Positions 2,742 through 10,389 of a stretch of DNA of 32,000 nucleotides are shown piece by piece (positions within the stretch are counted from its first letter, which is position 1; every line of letters begins with the position of its first letter). The position numbers were made by a program, and so were the translations under genes. The notes under the pieces are model-generated. The model had not been told where the DNA came from. It ran no database searches and saw nothing but the letters and a program-made list of their open reading frames with translations. Source of the DNA: Trichlorobacter lovleyi SZ (GTDB lineage: Bacteria > Desulfobacterota > Desulfuromonadia > Geobacterales > Pseudopelobacteraceae); the NCBI RefSeq assembly GCF_000020385.1, contig NC_010814.1:1230001-1262000 (forward strand). Direction: 5' to 3'.

Positions 2742-3017
2742 ATGAAGCATCCGTCTGTTACACCAAATATTCTGGATGCACCTGATGACGAGATTATCTG
2801 TTGGTGTGCAAAGGTTAGCAAGGGGGCGGTGTGCGATGCTATTGCCGATGGTGCTGATACACTGGACAAACTGCATGAACAGCTCGGTATTCTCAGAGGT
2901 GCCCTGTGTGCAGAGAAATCTCCGCGTGGCCGTTGCTGTTGTCAGGAAGTAGTAGCTCTGCTCACCCACAGTGCCCTGTGCAGGGCACGACGGCGAGGGG
3001 CGTTGCAGGCAGCATAA
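2742..3017 (+). CDS. Small BFD-like [2Fe-2S]-binding domain protein (Cys form)
   Basis: ICWCAKVSKGAV...SPRGRCCCQEV: a CxC plus distal Cys pattern like the bacterioferritin-associated-ferredoxin-like domain. Starts 8 nt after the permease stop. Paralog of the 10839..11039 gene. Confidence 0.7.
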   Translation: MKHPSVTPNILDAPDDEIICWCAKVSKGAVCDAIADGADTLDKLHEQLGILRGALCAEKSPRGRCCCQEVVALLTHSALCRARRRGALQAA

Positions 3018-3039: not shown

Positions 3040-3402
3040 ATGTCAGCTAAAAAGGGGTTTGTGTTGTGTGTCTGCCAGGGGACTTGTCCCAGTTTTACCA
3101 AGATGGATATCTTCGGGGTGTTGGCCGATGTGCGGCGGGAAAAGATCTTTGATTACGTCTGTCTGCATCCCCAGCTCTGTGTTGGTGATGGCGAGGAGTT
3201 TCTGAAGGTGCTGCTCTCCGGTGGTGAAACCGAAAAACTGTACATCGCGGCCTGTGATCCACAGATGCAGTGCAAGATGTACCGCGATGCCTTCGAGGCG
3301 GTTGGCTTTGACAAGGCCAATCATGTCGCCCTGGATATCCGCAACAAGACCACCGAAGAGGCCGTGGCAGCCATCAAGGCAATGGCTGTCAATAACCCCT
3401 GA
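3040..3402 (+). CDS. Cysteine-rich cytoplasmic protein, putative Fe-S/redox protein (weak resemblance to MvhD/HdrA-associated domains)
   Basis: ORF 2971..3402 trimmed to ATG 3040, which follows GGGAGGA (3026-3032). Motifs: FVLCVCQGTCPSF, VCLHPQLC, IAACDPQMQC. Confidence 0.65.
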   Translation: MSAKKGFVLCVCQGTCPSFTKMDIFGVLADVRREKIFDYVCLHPQLCVGDGEEFLKVLLSGGETEKLYIAACDPQMQCKMYRDAFEAVGFDKANHVALDIRNKTTEEAVAAIKAMAVNNP

Positions 3403-3414
3403 AGGGAGCAAGCC

Positions 3415-3699
3415 ATGAGCGAGTGGCGCGGCATACCCCGTGAAGAGATCCCCTGGTTTCCGACGGTTGATGCAGAAAAGTGTATCGGCTGCCGGGAGTG
3501 TGTCAATTTCTGCCGAAACAATGTGCTGACCTTTGATGAGTCAACCGGCAAGACCGTGGTGGTGAATCCGTACAACTGTGTGGTGGAGTGCCGTACCTGC
3601 TCCCGGCTCTGTCCGGTGGATGCCATCAATTTTCCTGATGAAATGGAATTTACAGCCTTGGTCAAAAAACTGCTGAATAATCGCTCAATTAATTCTTGA
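3415..3699 (+). CDS. 4Fe-4S dicluster-type ferredoxin domain protein
   Basis: CIGCRECVNFC and CVVECRTCSRLCP motifs. GGGAG lies 7 nt upstream of the ATG. Confidence 0.85.
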   Translation: MSEWRGIPREEIPWFPTVDAEKCIGCRECVNFCRNNVLTFDESTGKTVVVNPYNCVVECRTCSRLCPVDAINFPDEMEFTALVKKLLNNRSINS

Positions 3700-3701
3700 G
3701 C

Positions 3702-3734
3702 ATATGAGTTATTATTCATGATTATTCATAATTG
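3702..3734 (+). promoter_or_regulatory. Second copy of the ATATGAGT half-site in an AT-rich region with tandem ATTATTCAT repeats; candidate operator/promoter for the 3820-onward genes
   Basis: ATATGAGTTATTATTCAT (3702-3719) followed by GATTATTCATAATTG. Imperfect dyad ATGAGT-N4-ATTCAT. It also has Fur-box-like ATWAT periodicity. Confidence 0.35.
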
Positions 3735-3819
3735 CTGCACAGGTTTTTCATAAAGGCAATGTAATGTGGAAACAACCGGAGAATAGTCTCCGGCGTAACC
3801 CCACAAGGAGGATCAAGCT

Positions 3820-4128
3820 ATGAAAACGATCATCACCACCGTTGCACTGACCCTGGCCCTTGCCATGAGCTTTGCCGTTGCCGAGGCCCGTCCCTATCGC
3901 TGGCAGGGCAACCAGCAGAACACCTACGGCTGGCAGTTGATGACCGCTGATGAGCGGACCGAACATCAGGCCAAGCTGCGCAGCTTCACTGAGTACACTG
4001 CCTGCAAGGAATATGTAGATGAACACCACAAAAAAATGGAAGAGCGTGCCAAGGAAAAAGGGATCACCACCCCGATGGTCAAACGTAACCCTTGTGATCT
4101 CTTGAAGGCCCGTGGTGTGCTGAAATAA
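3820..4128 (+). CDS. Small secreted helical protein with two Cys and a His-rich patch (function unknown; faint Spy/CpxP/ZraP-like flavour)
   Basis: AAGGAGGA RBS. Signal peptide MKTIITTVALTLALAMSFAVAEA. DEHHKKMEE patch. Confidence 0.7.
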   Translation: MKTIITTVALTLALAMSFAVAEARPYRWQGNQQNTYGWQLMTADERTEHQAKLRSFTEYTACKEYVDEHHKKMEERAKEKGITTPMVKRNPCDLLKARGVLK

Positions 4129-4190
4129 CAGATCCCTGACGGCGTGCCTCGTTCATGCGAGGTGCGCCGTATTACTTCCACGGAGCGCAG

Positions 4191-4460
4191 ATGGAACGAA
4201 AATATCTTGAGCTGATCGGTATCGCTGCCTCTATCGGTAGTGAATGCCCAGATTGACTGGACTGGCACCTGAATGCTGCCCGTGAGGCAGGCGCAACCGA
4301 CAATGAACTGAAAGAAACCATCAGAATGTCCCAACGGGTACGCACCGTCACACTGGATAGCCATACCCGCTTTACCGCAAAAGTCATGGAGCTGTTGAAG
4401 CAGTTACCAAATGAAGCAACCGCTGAAGGGACGGCGGATCATACCACCCAAGGAGCATGA
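4191..4460 (+). CDS. AhpD-like (carboxymuconolactone decarboxylase family core) selenoprotein with a C-P-D-U motif; TGA 4254-4256 read as Sec
   Basis: Not in the ORF track because of the in-frame TGA. Translation: MERKYLELIGIAASIGSECPDULDWHLNAAREAGATDNELKETIRMSQRV... This matches the AhpD core pattern (LI.iA.s...C..C...H...A...Ga...El.E). It fills an otherwise empty 335-nt gap. The next gene's RBS and ATG sit right at its stop. Confidence 0.75.
4274..4293 (+). promoter_or_regulatory. Candidate bacterial SECIS hairpin for TGA 4254
   Basis: CUGCC-CGUGA-GGCAG (4276-4290), extendable by 2 bp with one bulge. The loop starts 24 nt after the TGA. This is a modest stem. Confidence 0.4.
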
Positions 4461-4463
4461 ATC

Positions 4464-4691
4464 ATGAAACTGGAAGTGTTGGGCACCGGCTGTGCCAAGT
4501 GCAAGACCCTGCTTGAAAACGTCAAGAAGGCCGTTGAGACCTCTGGTAAAGAGGCGGAGATCGTCAAGGTTGAGGATATCCCTTCAATCATGAAGTACGG
4601 TGTGATGAGTACCCCGGCCCTGGTTAAGGACGGCAAGGTGCTGTTTTCCGGCAAGCTGGCCACACCTGAAGAGATTGCGGGGATGCTCTGA
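4464..4691 (+). CDS. Thioredoxin-fold redox-active disulfide protein 2 family (small cytoplasmic CxxC protein)
   Basis: MKLEVLGTGCAKCKTL... with GCAKC active site. 75 aa. Typical partner of COG0701 permeases. Confidence 0.85.
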   Translation: MKLEVLGTGCAKCKTLLENVKKAVETSGKEAEIVKVEDIPSIMKYGVMSTPALVKDGKVLFSGKLATPEEIAGML

Positions 4692-5068
4692 TGCGGATCG
4701 TCTTGACACTTCTTTGTCTCTTGTTGACAAGCAGCGCCTTTGCTGAACTCCCCTCCGGCAATCAGTTCACTATCCAGGCTGCTCTGGCCTCCGGCAAACC
4801 CACCCTTGTTGATTTCGGCGCCCGCAGCTGCATCCCTTGCAAAAAGATGGCCCCGATTCTGGAGCAGCTGGAAAAGGAATACAAAGGTCGCGCCAATGTG
4901 ATCTTCGTGGATGTCTGGCAGGACAACAAAATCGGCGGTAATTACCGGGTACAGATGATTCCCACTCAGATCTTCTTTGATGCCAATGGCAAGGAATCAG
5001 GTCGCCATATTGGTTTCCTGGATCGCCAGCCGATTATTGATACCTTCAAAAAACTGGGTGTGAAGTGA
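4691..5068 (+). CDS. Periplasmic thioredoxin (CIPC active site) with signal peptide
   Basis: TGATG overlap with the previous gene. Signal peptide MRIVLTLLCLLLTSSAFA. VDFGARSCIPCKKMAP motif. Confidence 0.85.
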   Translation: MRIVLTLLCLLLTSSAFAELPSGNQFTIQAALASGKPTLVDFGARSCIPCKKMAPILEQLEKEYKGRANVIFVDVWQDNKIGGNYRVQMIPTQIFFDANGKESGRHIGFLDRQPIIDTFKKLGVK

Positions 5069-5748
5069 GCTTTCTGGACAACATTGAGCAGATCGTCACC
5101 CTCTATCCGATCCTGGCCTTTGGAGCGGTCTTTCTGGCCGGTGTTGTGTCGTCGGCTTCCCCCTGTGTATTGGCTACCATCCCGCTGGTGGTCGGCTTTG
5201 TGGGGGGCTATGCCGATGGCGACCGCAAGAAGGCGTTCAGCTATTCTCTCTCTTTTATCCTGGGACTTTCACTGACCTTCACCGCATTTGGCATGGCTGC
5301 CGGGCTGCTGGGCACCATGTTCGGCACCATGGGGGGCTGGTGGTACGTGGCCGCCGGTATCGTCGCGTTGGTGATGGGGGGGCAGATGATCGGCCTGTAC
5401 GAAATCCGGCTGCCGATCAAGCGGGAGTTCAAACCGAAGCAGGGGGGGATCGTCGGTTCGTTCCTGCTGGGCCTGTTCTTCGGCGTGGTTTCCTCTCCCT
5501 GTGCTACCCCGGTGCTGGTGGTGATTCTGACCTATGTGGCCACCAAGGGACAGATGCTGTACGGCGCAGCATTACTGTTCACCTATGCGGTGGGACACTG
5601 CCTGCTGATGCTCTTTGCCGGAACCTTTACCGGGTTTATCGAGGCCTTTGTCAAACAACAGGGGATTGTCAACTTTTCCACCCGAGTCAAGCAGTTCGGT
5701 GGCGTGGTGGTGGCCGGGGTTGGTGTCTATCTGCTTTGGAATGCCTGA
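5065..5748 (+). CDS. ccdA: CcdA/DsbD-family transmembrane thiol-disulfide electron transporter
   Basis: GTG start overlapping the upstream stop (GTGA). Two membrane-embedded SPC(V/A) motifs (SSASPCVLATIP, VSSPCATPVL). Six-TM profile. Confidence 0.8.
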   Translation: MSFLDNIEQIVTLYPILAFGAVFLAGVVSSASPCVLATIPLVVGFVGGYADGDRKKAFSYSLSFILGLSLTFTAFGMAAGLLGTMFGTMGGWWYVAAGIVALVMGGQMIGLYEIRLPIKREFKPKQGGIVGSFLLGLFFGVVSSPCATPVLVVILTYVATKGQMLYGAALLFTYAVGHCLLMLFAGTFTGFIEAFVKQQGIVNFSTRVKQFGGVVVAGVGVYLLWNA

Positions 5749-5788: not shown

Positions 5789-6760
5789 ATGTCTGATCAA
5801 TCAACATTCAACCTGCATCTGCGGGGATTCATCTCGCTTTTGACCGCATTGAGCTTTTTGATCATGACCGTTTCCGGTGTGATCCTGTTTATTACCCCTC
5901 AGGGAAGGGTGGCCTACTGGCTGGACTGGACCTTTTGGGGGATCAGCAAGTCGCAGTGGGGAGATATGCATATCACCACCAGCCTGCTGTTTGCCCTGGC
6001 CGGCTTGTGGCATACCTGGTTGAACTGGCGGGCACTGGTCAGCTATTTCCACGACAAGCTCAAAAAGACGGTGGCCCTGAAGTGGGAACTGACAATTGCC
6101 GTACTGATCACCATCTTCTGTACGGTGGGGGGGATCTACAAGACGCCGCCGCTCAGCTATGTCCTTGAGCTGAACGACTGGATCAAGGACGCCTGGGTCA
6201 CAAGCCCGGATGATGAGCCGGTTATCAGTCATGCGGAACTGCTGCCGCTCAAAAACTTCCTGAAAAAGGTGGATGTTGAACTGGAACCTGCCCTGGCTGA
6301 GCTGAAAAAGCAGGGCATAGCGGTCAGCGGACCTGATCAGAAGCTGCTGGATATTGCGAGAACTAACGGCAAGTCGCCGGCAGCCATCTACAAGCTGCTG
6401 AAACCGCTGGAAGGGAAATCTGCAGCCCAGACCCCATCTGTGCCGGTTGTCCCGGCTGTTCAGCAACCTTTAAAGCCGGTAACACCTGCCACACCGGCCG
6501 GAACCGGGCATATGCCGGCAAGGCAGCGCTGGACCGCCGAGCTGGTGCAGCAGCAGTTTGAAGGTAAAGGTGTGGGGCGCAAGACCTTGGCCGCTGTCTG
6601 TCAGGAACAGCAGCTTGACCAGGCGGCAATCATCAGAAAACTTGCAGCCCGCAAGATCAACGCAGCACCGGATGATACCCTGAAAAGACTTGGCGATGAG
6701 AGCGGTGAACTGCCGCTAGAACTGCTGAAAATTATCCTTGTCGGAGAACAGCGAAATTGA
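5789..6760 (+). CDS. Membrane protein with an N-terminal DUF4405-like 4-TM domain and a duplicated soluble C-terminal module
   Basis: ORF 5615..6760 trimmed to ATG 5789 (AAGGA upstream). TM region with conserved His (WGDMHITTSLLF, LWHTWLNW). C-terminal half described in findings. Confidence 0.7.
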   Translation: MSDQSTFNLHLRGFISLLTALSFLIMTVSGVILFITPQGRVAYWLDWTFWGISKSQWGDMHITTSLLFALAGLWHTWLNWRALVSYFHDKLKKTVALKWELTIAVLITIFCTVGGIYKTPPLSYVLELNDWIKDAWVTSPDDEPVISHAELLPLKNFLKKVDVELEPALAELKKQGIAVSGPDQKLLDIARTNGKSPAAIYKLLKPLEGKSAAQTPSVPVVPAVQQPLKPVTPATPAGTGHMPARQRWTAELVQQQFEGKGVGRKTLAAVCQEQQLDQAAIIRKLAARKINAAPDDTLKRLGDESGELPLELLKIILVGEQRN

Positions 6761-6790
6761 TTACAAACATTGTCTGAGGGAGAAATAGTT

Positions 6791-7258
6791 ATGCAACGTA
6801 CGTTCGTTCTTATCCTGTTGGTGCTTGGGCTTTTCGTGCTGCCCGCTGCTGCGGCTGAAGAGGTCTTTGATCGCTTTCTGGCCGGATTTGACTACGATAC
6901 CCGGGCTGATATGAAGACCGACAGCAAGCGGTTGATCAAACTGCTTGAGGAGAAAAAGGCGGTGCTGGTGGATATCCGCTTTCCTGAGGAGACCAGGGCC
7001 TGGCGGATGGGGTTTGGTCTGTTTATTCCGCTTAATGAGCTGCCCAAACGTCTTGCCGAACTGCCCAAGGACAAGATCATCGTCACCGCCTGTCCCCACA
7101 AGGACCGTTCCTCGATTGCTATGGCCTATCTGCGCACCAAAGGCTATAATGCGCGCTACCTGACCGACGGGCTGATTGGTCTGGCTGAAAACCTGCGGGG
7201 CGATACTGCCAAGGACTTTTTGGAAGACGCCGGTTTGGCACCGGCTGGAAAGAAGTGA
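6791..7258 (+). CDS. Periplasmic single-domain rhodanese-like sulfurtransferase
   Basis: ORF trimmed to ATG 6791. Signal peptide MQRTFVLILLVLGLFVLPAAAA. Active-site loop CPHKDRS (CX4R). Confidence 0.8.
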   Translation: MQRTFVLILLVLGLFVLPAAAAEEVFDRFLAGFDYDTRADMKTDSKRLIKLLEEKKAVLVDIRFPEETRAWRMGFGLFIPLNELPKRLAELPKDKIIVTACPHKDRSSIAMAYLRTKGYNARYLTDGLIGLAENLRGDTAKDFLEDAGLAPAGKK

Positions 7259-7572
7259 GCATGCTGAATACCCTGGAGTACAGCGCTGACGTGCTGAAGG
7301 CGATCTCGCAGCCGACCCGCTTAAGGATCATCGAACTGTTGCGGGATGGTGAGCATTGTGTCTGCGAGATCTTTCCGGCGATCGGGCATGAACAGTCCAA
7401 CACCTCCCGTCACCTGCAGATGATGCTGAAGAGCGGTATCCTTAACCAGCGCAAGGATGGGCTGAAGATCTACTACTCCCTGCGGCACCCGGAGGTGCTG
7501 GAGATAGTACGGCTGGCCGGTCTGATTGCCGCTCATGAGGCAACGCAACGGGCTGCGCTGTTTACCAGGTAG
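7255..7572 (+). CDS. ArsR/SmtB-family metalloregulatory repressor
   Basis: ISQPTRLRIIELL...GEHCVCEI...SNTSRHLQMML winged-HTH pattern. GTG 7255 overlaps the upstream stop; ATG 7261 is an alternative start. Confidence 0.85.
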   Translation: MSMLNTLEYSADVLKAISQPTRLRIIELLRDGEHCVCEIFPAIGHEQSNTSRHLQMMLKSGILNQRKDGLKIYYSLRHPEVLEIVRLAGLIAAHEATQRAALFTR

Positions 7573-9279: not shown

Positions 9280-10389
9280 ATGGAAAAGTGTATCACGTAT
9301 GTCGGGCTTGATGTTCACAAAAACTCCATAGATGTCGCTTTGGCCGATGAAGGCCGTGACAAGGAAGTCCGTTACTACGGCACTATTGACGGCAGTCTTG
9401 ATGCATTGGACAAAGTTCTCAGAAAACTGGTTTCTCGTGGTACCGAACTTCGATTCGTCTATGAAGCTGGCCCGTGCGGTTATGACATCTATCGGCACCT
9501 AACCCGTAAGGGTTTTGATTGTATCGTGGTTGCCCCTTCTTTGATTCCCAAGAAGAGCGGCAGCCGAATAAAGAATGATCGGCGTGATGCCGAGATGCTG
9601 GCCCGTCTGCACCGAGCAGGCGAACTGACTCCGGTCTATGTTCCGCGCATCGAAGATGAGGCAATGCGCGACCTCTGCAGGGCCCGTATCGATGCAAAGA
9701 ATGCTGAGCGAAAGGCCCGTCAGCAATTGAATGCATTTCTGCTGCGCAGCGGCTTCCGCTATAGCGGCAAAACACTCTGGAGTCTTGCCCATTGGCGTTG
9801 GATCTCCGACATACACATGACGCATTCCGCACAGCAGATCACCCTGCAGGAGTATGTGGATGCAGTCAGATCGAACACAGAGCGCGTTGATAGGATCACG
9901 GAACAGATTTGCCTGCTTGCTGCAGAATGGCGACTTGGTCCGGTTGTCGAAGCGCTCCAAGCTCTGCGGGGAGTCTCTCTGGTAGTTGCCTCAACCACCG
10001 TTGCTGAGCTTGGTGACTTGAGTCGCTTTGACAATCCCCGACATCTGATGGCGTATCTGGGGCTTGTACCTTCAGAACACTCAAGTGGAGAGTCAACACA
10101 GCGAGGCGGTATAACCAAGACTGGCAATGGACATGCACGCCGAATGCTGGTCGAAGCTGCCTGGTCGTATCGGTTGCCGGCACGGGTTAGCAGGCGACTT
10201 CGAGACCGACAACAGAATCTGCCGCAAGCGGTATGGGAGATTGCCTGGAAGGCACAGCTCAGACTTTGCGCCCGCTACAAACGACTTGTTACCAAAGGCA
10301 AGCAGGCACAGGTAGTCATTACCGCCATTGCCAGAGAACTGTCCGCATTCATGTGGGCTATAGCCCAAGCAGTACCAGTCGCATCGTAA
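9280..10389 (+). CDS. IS110-family DEDD transposase/recombinase
   Basis: YVGLDVHK, VYEAGPCGY, KNDRRDA and C-terminal GLVPSEHSSGES..RGGITKTGNGHARRMLVEAAW motifs. AAGGAGG RBS. Confidence 0.9.
   Translation: MEKCITYVGLDVHKNSIDVALADEGRDKEVRYYGTIDGSLDALDKVLRKLVSRGTELRFVYEAGPCGYDIYRHLTRKGFDCIVVAPSLIPKKSGSRIKNDRRDAEMLARLHRAGELTPVYVPRIEDEAMRDLCRARIDAKNAERKARQQLNAFLLRSGFRYSGKTLWSLAHWRWISDIHMTHSAQQITLQEYVDAVRSNTERVDRITEQICLLAAEWRLGPVVEALQALRGVSLVVASTTVAELGDLSRFDNPRHLMAYLGLVPSEHSSGESTQRGGITKTGNGHARRMLVEAAWSYRLPARVSRRLRDRQQNLPQAVWEIAWKAQLRLCARYKRLVTKGKQAQVVITAIARELSAFMWAIAQAVPVAS

Follow-up and report, generated by a model that had tools for sequence, protein, structure and literature searches.

A probable AhpD-like selenoprotein gene concealed in a redox gene cluster of Trichlorobacter lovleyi SZ

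The DNA analyzed comprises 32,000 nucleotides of Trichlorobacter lovleyi SZ (contig NC_010814.1, positions 1,230,001 to 1,262,000 of the forward strand), further referred to as the window. It contains an apparently empty gap between the genes that end at position 4128 and start at position 4464. Within this gap, positions 4191-4460 very probably form a working gene, the product of which is a cytoplasmic thiol/selenol oxidoreductase of the AhpD/CMD type with 89 residues, whereby UGA 4254-4256 would be decoded as selenocysteine (Sec) with the aid of a downstream RNA hairpin and the product would take part in a redox relay. Homologous DNA loci that were fetched are numbered L001 onwards and homologous proteins P0001 onwards.

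An overlooked reading frame

From ATG 4191 to TGA 4460, the + strand can be read as one frame of 89 codons with a single in-frame TGA at 4254-4256. The conceptual product consists of MERKYLELIGIAASIGSECPD, the TGA codon, and LDWHLNAAREAGATDNELKE..., and full readthrough yields MERKYLELIGIAASIGSECPD-U-LDWHLNAAREAGATDNELKETIRMSQRVRTVTLDSHTRFTAKVMELLKQLPNEATAEGTADHTTQGA (89 residues). The features of this gene are the following:

4182-4185, + strand: ribosome-binding site GGAG of the predicted selenoprotein gene, 5 nt 5' of ATG 4191, read from the sequence
4191-4460, + strand: coding sequence of the 89-residue AhpD/CMD-like predicted selenoprotein, based on its translation, its PF02627 and TIGR00778 scores, and a start and frame that are kept in homologues
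4209-4211, + strand: codon of Glu7, corresponding to the proton-relay residue Glu118 of AhpD (TIGR00777 alignment; relay residues according to PMC3141380) and invariant in the homologue alignment
4245-4256, + strand: redox motif C19-P-D-U22, with TGC at 4245-4247 and TGA (Sec) at 4254-4256, the U being aligned with Cys in the Cys forms
4266-4268, + strand: codon of His26, corresponding to His137 of AhpD (TIGR00777 alignment; PMC3141380) and invariant in all homologues
4275-4292, + strand: candidate apical hairpin of a selenocysteine insertion sequence (SECIS), GCU-GCC [CGUGA] GGC-A-GGC, with its loop at 4281-4285, 24 nt after the UGA, and a bulged base at 4289
4450-4455, + strand: ribosome-binding site AAGGAG of the next gene (ATG 4464), within the last codons of the predicted selenoprotein gene
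4458-4460, + strand: terminal stop codon TGA, from the translation

A first-pass annotation of this DNA had claimed that an AhpD-like selenoprotein gene was hidden in the gap, and this claim is borne out by the family scores, the kept TGA codon, the open frame, and the purifying selection on both sides of the codon that are described below. The positions that it gave for the GGAG motif, the start codon, TGA 4254, the AAGGAG motif, and the next ATG all held on re-reading the sequence. It was also right that no + strand open reading frame (ORF) of at least 60 amino acids lies between 4128 and 4464; the only one in the ORF list was a 44-amino-acid piece (4326-4460) in the same frame as the predicted selenoprotein gene, and antisense ORFs covered the gap at 3966-4364, 4172-4387, and 4439-4663. 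All homologues started at, or one to two codons from, a conserved N-terminal motif [ED]-[RKQ]-[KR]. Since this motif is conserved and the residues upstream of it are not, the start was placed at 4191 and the upstream ATG 4155 was rejected; the latter is missing in L011, and the in-frame upstream residues are unconserved in L012, L013, and L017-L027. The presence of AAGGAG inside the gene is predicted to couple its translation to that of the gene at 4464. Furthermore, TGA is the commonest true stop codon in the window, as it ends 16 of the 32 main ORFs, among which the predicted selenoprotein gene itself, so that the genetic code is not reassigned. A six-frame scan for in-frame TGA codons with open flanks returned 107 matches, and a CxxU or UxxC protein context occurred at 4254 only.

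Similarity to AhpD proteins and active site

Family searches were performed on the conceptual translation with U changed to C. Both families that the first-pass annotation had proposed to search were recovered above their cutoffs, namely Pfam CMD (PF02627; 43.6 bits versus a gathering score of 23) and the AhpD core domain (TIGR00778; 37.1 bits versus 27.8). The sequence matches in the PDB were all CMD/AhpD proteins, for example 1VKE, 1P8C, 7Y4R, and 5DIK. The predicted selenoprotein aligned with the C-terminal half of the solved CMD proteins 1P8C and 1VKE, in the case of TM1620 (1P8C) with residues 66-135 of 145, and by this alignment it is a half-size CMD unit. The TIGR00777 profile aligned residues 6-54 with its positions 117-165 of 177. 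In AhpD of Mycobacterium tuberculosis, the relay residues are Glu118, Cys130, His132, Cys133, and His137 (PMC3141380). Glu7, Cys19, Sec22, and His26 map to Glu118, Cys130, Cys133, and His137, respectively, and Asp21 replaces His132. The spacing E7-x11-C19-P-D-U22-x3-H26 hence follows the AhpD relay pattern, i.e. C-x-x-C(U)-x-x-x-H with a Glu 12 residues upstream.

A fold model was made for the Cys homologue P0004 (65% identical) instead of the window protein itself. This AlphaFold model had a mean predicted local distance difference test (pLDDT) score of 92.7 and consisted of three helices, with the active-site motif at the start of the second helix. Its Foldseek matches in the PDB were essentially all CMD/AhpD proteins (7Y4R, 3BEY, 1VKE/1P8C, and 1KNC), and it superposed on M. 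tuberculosis AhpD (1KNC) at 1.2 A over 53 columns. These matches were weak (best E-value 2e-3, TM-scores 0.5-0.6), which is not surprising with such a short helical query.

An exhaustive search of representative sequences retrieved 733 relatives at E <= 1e-3, comprising many proteins of 57-100 residues as well as two-unit tandem proteins. Several small relatives (P0057, P0060, P0071, P0078, P0080, and P0087) possess Cys-rich C-terminal tails, such as GCGCGEGCDC, CCCSGGSCSGE, and SGCNSCCDSC, hinting at metal binding; a tail of this kind is lacking in the window protein. The AhpD-like homologue P0021, which is truncated at the U position, ends in ...STEEAVAAIKQLVEQNP, closely resembling the C-terminus ...TTEEAVAAIKAMAVNNP (3350-3399) of a 120-residue Fe-S protein encoded in the window. 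This likeness may represent a shared docking tail or an artefact of fusion or recombination.

Conservation of the TGA codon and selective constraint

The first-pass annotation had expected orthologues to carry either Cys or TGA at the Sec codon, and this was what the fetched loci displayed: TGA was found in L001-L006, L011-L013, L016-L023, L026, and L027, and Cys (TGC or TGT) in seven loci (L009, L010, L014, L015, L024, L025, and L028). Altogether, 14-16 distinct relatives kept TGA at this position, with identities down to ~54%, and eight other sequences had TGC or TGT, some of them next to the same set of genes. As in known bacterial selenoproteins, the in-frame UGA is aligned with a Cys of homologues, and both the UGA and the coding signal on its two sides are kept across diverged orthologues.

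The homologues came from several searches. A word-indexed protein search yielded four relatives (P0001-P0004). P0001 is a 67-amino-acid call that starts at the codon directly after the TGA, its DNA (L001) reading gat TGA atg gac tgg; in P0002, the Sec position is taken by Trp; and P0003 and P0004 represent the Cys form in full length (ECRDCLEWH and GCSDCLDWH, respectively), followed by the same genes for a Trx_3 protein, a thioredoxin, and CcdA as in the window. A scan of species-representative genomes added two Cys forms and three TGA forms, the latter being L011 (a Geobacter metagenome-assembled genome), L012 (Pelobacter sp. GS8, 57% identity), and L013 (a Geobacter metagenome-assembled genome, 56%). 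The two Cys forms (L014 and L015) are proteins of 66 residues. Finally, metagenomes were scanned with a DNA pattern in which the third base of the Sec codon and every wobble position could vary; of the 13 loci retrieved, ten had TGA and three TGC.

In the homologous loci, the frame was open on both sides of the TGA, and the distinct TGA forms contained no other stop codons or indels. Among these forms, the ratio of non-synonymous to synonymous polymorphism (pN/pS) amounted to 0.215 in codons 1-21 and to 0.424 in codons 23-62. Because this ratio is low on both sides of the TGA, both halves must be translated in one frame. In a neighbour-joining tree, the Cys forms L009, L010, and L024/L028 were nested among the Sec forms, suggesting that Sec and Cys have been interconverted repeatedly, although the alignment is short and the tree indicative. 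The Cys forms L025 and L028 have S-x-x-C, having lost the first Cys of the motif and kept the residue that matches Sec.

As to the capacity to decode UGA, Geobacter relatives are documented Sec users that possess SelD and selenoproteins, and a selenoprotein described as a distant AhpD homolog occurs in two of the three Geobacter relatives listed (PMC1794560).

A candidate SECIS element

In bSECISearch, the apical loop of a bacterial SECIS element is sought at 16-37 nt from the UGA, with a G among the first two loop bases. The GC-rich hairpin at 4275-4292 (-6.6 to -7.6 kcal/mol in the window) corresponds to a consensus common to all Sec forms, GCY-GCC [CGUGA] GGC-N-GGY. A positive, though indirect, indication for an RNA element comes from silent sites, which were compared for the 14 distinct Sec forms long enough over codons 23-32. 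At conserved codons, the third-base entropy was 0.33 bits in codons 23-32, versus 1.14 bits elsewhere in the gene (one-sided Mann-Whitney, p = 2e-4). Three third bases stood out:

Ala30: gcC in 14/14 Sec forms, in the closing pair of the hairpin (C27)
Arg31: cgU in 13/14 Sec forms, in the hairpin loop (U30)
Glu32: gaG in 14/14 Sec forms, in the closing pair of the hairpin (G33)

Similarly, Ala29 was encoded by gcC or gcU only, both of which can pair with G37. Elsewhere in the gene, Ala, Arg, and Glu codons varied freely at their third base among the Sec forms, and the frozen pattern was broken in two distant Cys forms (cgc gaa in L014 and gca agt in L015). Such silent-site freezing fits the signature of an RNA element that overlaps the coding sequence where a bacterial SECIS belongs, and this element would most likely be the hairpin 4275-4292, with its CGUGA loop, acting as the SelB-binding SECIS.

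Gene context

The AhpD-like gene is accompanied by a conserved but reshuffled set of genes, encoding an ArsR regulator, an ArsP_1 permease, a BFD-like protein, a 120-amino-acid protein, a ferredoxin, a 102-amino-acid protein, a Trx_3 protein, a thioredoxin, CcdA, a DUF4405 protein, and a rhodanese. Synteny was assessed by tblastn of the window proteins against all fetched loci. In the window, these neighbours are:

1754-2734, + strand: ArsP_1-type permease (PF03773, 286 bits), co-occurring in L001, L002, L011-L018, L020, L022, and L026
2742-3017, + strand: BFD-like [2Fe-2S] domain protein with a CCC motif (19 bits, below the Pfam cutoff)
3040-3402, + strand: Cys-rich 120-amino-acid protein (CVCQGTC...) with a weak likeness to the HdrA N-terminus (19 bits)
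3415-3699, + strand: 2x[4Fe-4S] ferredoxin (profile matches), paired with the 120-amino-acid protein in L011-L013, L022, and L027
3820-4128, + strand: 102-amino-acid protein with an N-terminal leader, found by synteny (70-97% identity) just upstream of the AhpD-like gene in many loci
4464-4691, + strand: Trx_3 thioredoxin-like protein of the MTH895/ArsE type, 75 amino acids, with CxxC and no signal peptide (PF13192, 91.2 bits; TIGR00412, 100.5 bits)
4691-5068, + strand: thioredoxin of 125 amino acids with an N-terminal hydrophobic leader (PF00085, 56.9 bits; synteny), judged periplasmic by eye
5065-5748, + strand: CcdA/DsbD-type transmembrane thiol-disulfide electron transporter (PF02683, 91.1 bits; synteny)
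5789-6760, + strand: DUF4405 membrane protein (PF14358, 66.1 bits; synteny)
6770-7258, + strand: rhodanese with an N-terminal hydrophobic leader (PF00581, 34.1 bits; synteny), judged periplasmic by eye
7255-7572, + strand: ArsR-family regulator with a CVC motif (PF01022, 50.4 bits), co-occurring in L011-L015 and L026

The order of the genes varied among the loci, as illustrated by the following:

L026: CDF, ArsR, ArsP, AhpD(U), Trx_3, Trx, CcdA
L013: ArsR, ArsP, DUF4405, AhpD(U), HdrA-like, Fer4, rhodanese, Trx_3, Trx, CcdA
L014 and L015: ArsR, AhpD(C), ArsP, Trx_3

The first-pass annotation had placed the selenoprotein at the head of a thioredoxin/CcdA/rhodanese relay. The same gene set is indeed present, but the order differs in other loci and the module starts upstream with ArsR and ArsP. 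The Trx_3 gene shares its locus with the AhpD-like gene in nearly all loci that are long enough and directly follows it in most; the Cys-form loci L009 and L010 keep the same downstream genes for Trx_3, thioredoxin, and CcdA. Based on this neighbourhood, the Trx_3 protein (4464-4691) is a likely redox partner of the predicted selenoprotein. No gene for AhpC or another peroxiredoxin (Prx) was found in the window or in any related locus. Among the module genes, tblastn revealed a conserved in-frame TGA in the AhpD-like gene only. The BFD-like protein of the window (2742-3017) is a Cys version; (2Fe-2S)-binding, CopZ-family relatives of the BFD-like type have been listed as selenoproteins (PMC13188914).

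The 120-amino-acid protein (3040-3402) had no Pfam family and, in a sequence search, no PDB relative. It was 84-95% identical across loci whose AhpD-like protein is only 54-57% identical, and the ferredoxin gene usually comes after it, the two being ~1.8 kb apart in L027. It resembles an Fe-S component of the module, as yet uncharacterised, and could, together with the ferredoxin, possibly act as electron donor. In the region 3480-5439 of L001 and L002, a methyl-accepting chemotaxis gene stands where the genes for the BFD-like protein, the HdrA-like protein, and the ferredoxin would be expected, and a ferredoxin remnant with in-frame stop codons is present at 3578-3772. The 102-amino-acid protein (3820-4128) did not match any family, and a PDB sequence search with it gave nothing useful. 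Between its gene and the ribosome-binding site of the AhpD-like gene lies an 11-bp hairpin (GGCGUGCCUCG UUCAU GCGAGGUGCGCC; 4142-4168, + strand) without a T-run, which is kept in the close relatives L001, L007, and L011, with some changes that strengthen or preserve its pairing. Its function might lie in attenuation, processing, or stabilisation of the mRNA. A promoter and terminator scan showed no clear operon boundary around the AhpD-like gene.

Downstream of the rhodanese gene, L001 and L003 carry an RND efflux system instead (outer-membrane factor, CzcB-like protein, and ACR_tran), and this region is, judging from the loci compared, a variable boundary of the module. In the window, an IS110-family transposase gene (9280-10389, + strand) directly follows two CDF transporter genes. 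For the remainder, the window is a Geobacter-type chromosome segment with genes for multihaem cytochromes, a porin, and cytochrome bd, the pta, trp, and hom genes, and the IS110 element.

Proposed role

The predicted selenoprotein and the Trx_3 protein would both be cytoplasmic, as no leader peptide was recognized in either of them by eye. Because the former matches only positions 22-65 of the 84 of the CMD profile, it is probably oligomeric, like other CMD proteins. It would cycle between a selenol/thiol and a selenenylsulfide state and most likely serve as a fast selenol-based exchanger of disulfides (selenenylsulfides), passing reducing equivalents to and from the Trx_3 protein. This pair may feed CcdA, the periplasmic thioredoxin, and the rhodanese from the cytoplasmic, electron-input side. 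Alternatively, it may reduce an adduct of a thiophilic metal or metalloid before its export by the ArsP permease.

A more specific version of this mechanism can be put forward tentatively, with the odds against it. The Sec-containing AhpD-like protein and the Trx_3 protein would form the cytoplasmic catalytic pair of a Geobacter-type module, not described in the PMC papers cited here, of ArsR, ArsP, HdrA-N-like protein, ferredoxin, CcdA, thioredoxin, rhodanese, and DUF4405 protein. Electrons from the ferredoxin would reduce the selenenylsulfide, after which the selenol would either feed CcdA or strip or reduce a thiophilic metal(loid) or organometal(loid) compound for export. The module would then be the unfused counterpart of the TsoB fusion as well as of the AhpD domain of the arsenite methyltransferase selenoproteins.

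Counter-evidence and alternative explanations

Several observations weigh against the proposed selenoprotein and its role, most of them concerning the SECIS, which is the weakest link in the case for Sec. The hairpin 4275-4292 pairs in 96% of the cells across 13 Sec forms, without covariation; neither RNAalifold, which proposes a different structure, nor pair counting detected compensatory changes, a test that cannot decide the matter under the strong constraint which the protein sequence imposes on this stretch. The minimum-energy fold of 4254-4320 was no better than that of shuffled sequences (z = +0.92), and in the window it prefers a longer, imperfect stem over the hairpin. Rfam gave nothing at its gathering thresholds in the window and nothing at E <= 10 on 4150-4400. 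Moreover, the hairpin overlaps the protein motif AAREAG, which is conserved in non-Sec relatives too, and the nested Cys forms L009, L010, and L024 have the hairpin as well. With respect to decoding, neither tRNA-Sec nor selA, selB, or selD was found within the 32-kb window, which contains no tRNA genes, and the Sec-decoding ability of the source genome is deduced from its relatives. The partial coverage of the CMD profile mentioned above falls short of a complete domain, and both partners and substrate are assigned from the gene neighbourhood. Finally, L007 (678-960) and L008 (472-750) have TGG (Trp) instead of the Sec TGA, together with a 1-nt deletion in an A-run that cuts the protein at 65 amino acids. 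This lineage, seen in SRR13617039 and SRR13617041, is nearly identical to L011 and its flanking genes are intact; the gene would either have decayed recently, once Sec decoding was lost, or be affected by an assembly or sequencing error.

The longer stem that is the best fold of the window (pairs 5-7/44-46, 12-13/40-41, and 15-18/35-38) was not adopted as the SECIS; it is not kept in L012 and L013. Minimum-energy folds downstream of the UGA differed between orthologues.

Four other explanations were weighed. According to one, the frame is a pseudogene, i.e. a CMD gene struck by a nonsense mutation at its second active-site Cys in a gap that is decaying, as might be read from the lack of a full-length ORF in gene calls, from the TGG and the truncating deletion in a near-identical relative of L011, and from frameshifts in L018. 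However, L018 is frameshifted in all its genes, being a poor-quality contig, and the A-run deletion of L007 may be a sequencing error. Frameshift or decay in orthologues, which the first-pass annotation had named as the observation that would speak for a pseudogene, was thus encountered in the L007/L008 lineage, whereas the frame was open in the distinct TGA forms; with the TGA held in 14-16 distinct sequences down to ~54% identity, no other stops or indels, and pN/pS values of 0.22 upstream and 0.42 downstream of it, decay is highly improbable. Just as improbable is a translation that ends at UGA 4254, with a product without Sec that starts just after it (67 amino acids, as called by the Joint Genome Institute, JGI) or at ATG 4326 (44 amino acids). 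Public calls do follow this reading: P0001 starts directly behind the TGA, and the starts of P0021, P0036, P0082, P0008, and P0052 lie shortly behind the U position or farther on. P0021, P0036, and P0082, which start just behind that position, are probably Sec forms that were truncated. However, ATG is the next codon in the L001 group only, being CTG or CTT elsewhere, and no ribosome-binding site precedes it. Furthermore, the 21 upstream codons, which carry Glu7 and Cys19, are the most constrained part of the gene (pN/pS 0.215), and the Cys-form homologues are continuous proteins.

Reading of the UGA as Cys, Trp, or another standard residue, through leaky or near-cognate readthrough or a reassigned code, is improbable too, albeit somewhat less so than the two preceding explanations. 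The unproven SECIS, the TGG codon in one lineage, and the W or Q at this position in the homologues P0022 and P0007 would accord with it. It is contradicted by the use of TGA as the commonest genuine stop codon in the window, including at the end of this very gene, by the alignment of the UGA with a catalytic Cys, the classic Sec/Cys pair, by the silent-site constraint exactly where a SECIS is expected, and by the documented use of Sec in Geobacter relatives. A last explanation, unlikely but carrying more weight than the others, accepts a genuine selenoprotein and makes it a peroxide-detoxifying AhpD that re-reduces a peroxiredoxin or acts on hydroperoxides, its link with ArsR, ArsP, and CcdA being incidental. 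In its favour, the AhpD relay (Glu, Cys, Cys/Sec, and His) is conserved, and the closest relatives of known structure bear annotations as antioxidant or AhpD proteins. Yet, a classical peroxidase role coupled to AhpC is made less likely by the absence of a peroxiredoxin gene from the window and all related loci; in addition, the gene travels with those for ArsR, ArsP, Trx_3, and CcdA across reshuffled loci, many small relatives have Cys-rich, putatively metal-binding tails, and two curated selenoprotein families, NF041537 and NF045649, consist of arsenite methyltransferases with a fused AhpD-like CxxU domain. A Sec-containing disulfide exchanger that works with the Trx_3 protein is the favoured interpretation.

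Comparison with known selenoproteins and redox systems

Selenoproteins of the AhpD/CMD superfamily with a CxxU motif have been known since 2004-2005, as the first-pass annotation had acknowledged for Deltaproteobacteria (PMC1088965, PMC2398784, PMC1794560, PMC13188914), and the general knowledge of AhpD-like selenoproteins is not changed by the window gene. The same sources describe AhpD-like proteins (COG2128), CMD-domain or AhpD-like 2 proteins (PF02627), the distant AhpD homolog of Geobacter (NF041047), and AhpD-related proteins (NF041238). From its family match, the window gene is of the PF02627 CxxU kind. Members of this kind were found in the Sargasso Sea and Global Ocean Sampling (GOS) metagenomes (PMC1088965, PMC2398784; listed in PMC13188914) and, in the GOS data, AhpD-like 2 was commoner in non-marine samples (PMC2398784). 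The window protein shares with them the Pfam family, the CxxU motif with Sec at the second Cys of CxxC, and widespread Cys homologues, but it is half-size and has a fixed ArsR/ArsP/Trx_3/CcdA neighbourhood.

None of the curated NCBIfam selenoprotein models tested reached its cutoff with the window protein. The best one was the GSU3128 family (seleno)protein model NF041047 (45 bits versus a cutoff of 110, positions 18-60 of 84). This family, the distant AhpD homolog of Geobacter sulfurreducens and G. uraniireducens (PMC1794560, PMC13188914), is likewise small (84-position model), contains CxxU, and belongs to the same bacterial group; given the score under the cutoff, the window protein is a relative rather than a member. 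Because no such model reaches its cutoff, the subfamily probably stays unannotated in Geobacter-type genomes. The window gene exemplifies how standard gene calling can lose or shorten a genuine gene with UGA as an active-site codon; in public annotations, the orthologues either begin behind the TGA (P0001, which JGI named YurZ) or are absent. Correct annotation would add a selenoprotein to the selenoproteomes of these organisms and fill in the cytoplasmic redox part that a conserved gene cluster linked to metal(loid) stress was lacking.

With AhpD of M. tuberculosis (TIGR00777; 1KNC), the window protein has the relay residues in common, as well as the helix pair that superposes in the P0004 model. 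In contrast, AhpD counts 177 residues with extra helices, its His132 is Asp in the window protein, and an AhpC partner gene is lacking here; the TIGR00777 score (16.2 bits versus a cutoff of 191.95) places the window protein outside AhpD proper. The C-terminal AhpD-like CxxU domains of ArsM/AhpD (NF041537) and MduS (NF045649) align with residues 2-49 and 2-80, respectively. The window protein is free-standing and has no methyltransferase domain, and with ~31 bits for each model it stays far from their cutoffs (510 and 380). Nevertheless, these fusions suggest a metal(loid) context.

At the level of the module, the CcdA protein and the periplasmic thioredoxin of the window align to consecutive parts, positions 182-391 and 463-563, of TsoB (NF045694), a selenoprotein that is a fusion of rhodanese, DsbD, and thioredoxin. 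Regarding the SAO system, which comprises the efflux permease SaoE and the thioredoxin-like selenoprotein SaoT, the ArsP permease of the window is closest to SaoE (140 bits). Scores with the TsoB and SAO models were far under their cutoffs, and the window genes are separate and Cys versions, with Sec in the AhpD-like gene only. The neighbourhood thus resembles known selenoprotein-rich redox and organometal modules. No description of the ArsR/ArsP/Trx_3/CcdA association was found in PMC1088965, PMC2398784, PMC1794560, PMC13188914, or PMC3141380, a comparison that excludes the primary SAO/Tso papers (Haft and Gwadz 2023; Haft and Tolstoy 2025). On the basis of these sequence comparisons, it is the half-size architecture and the fixed association with ArsR, ArsP, Trx_3, and CcdA that set the predicted selenoprotein of T. 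lovleyi SZ apart from the known CxxU AhpD/CMD selenoproteins.

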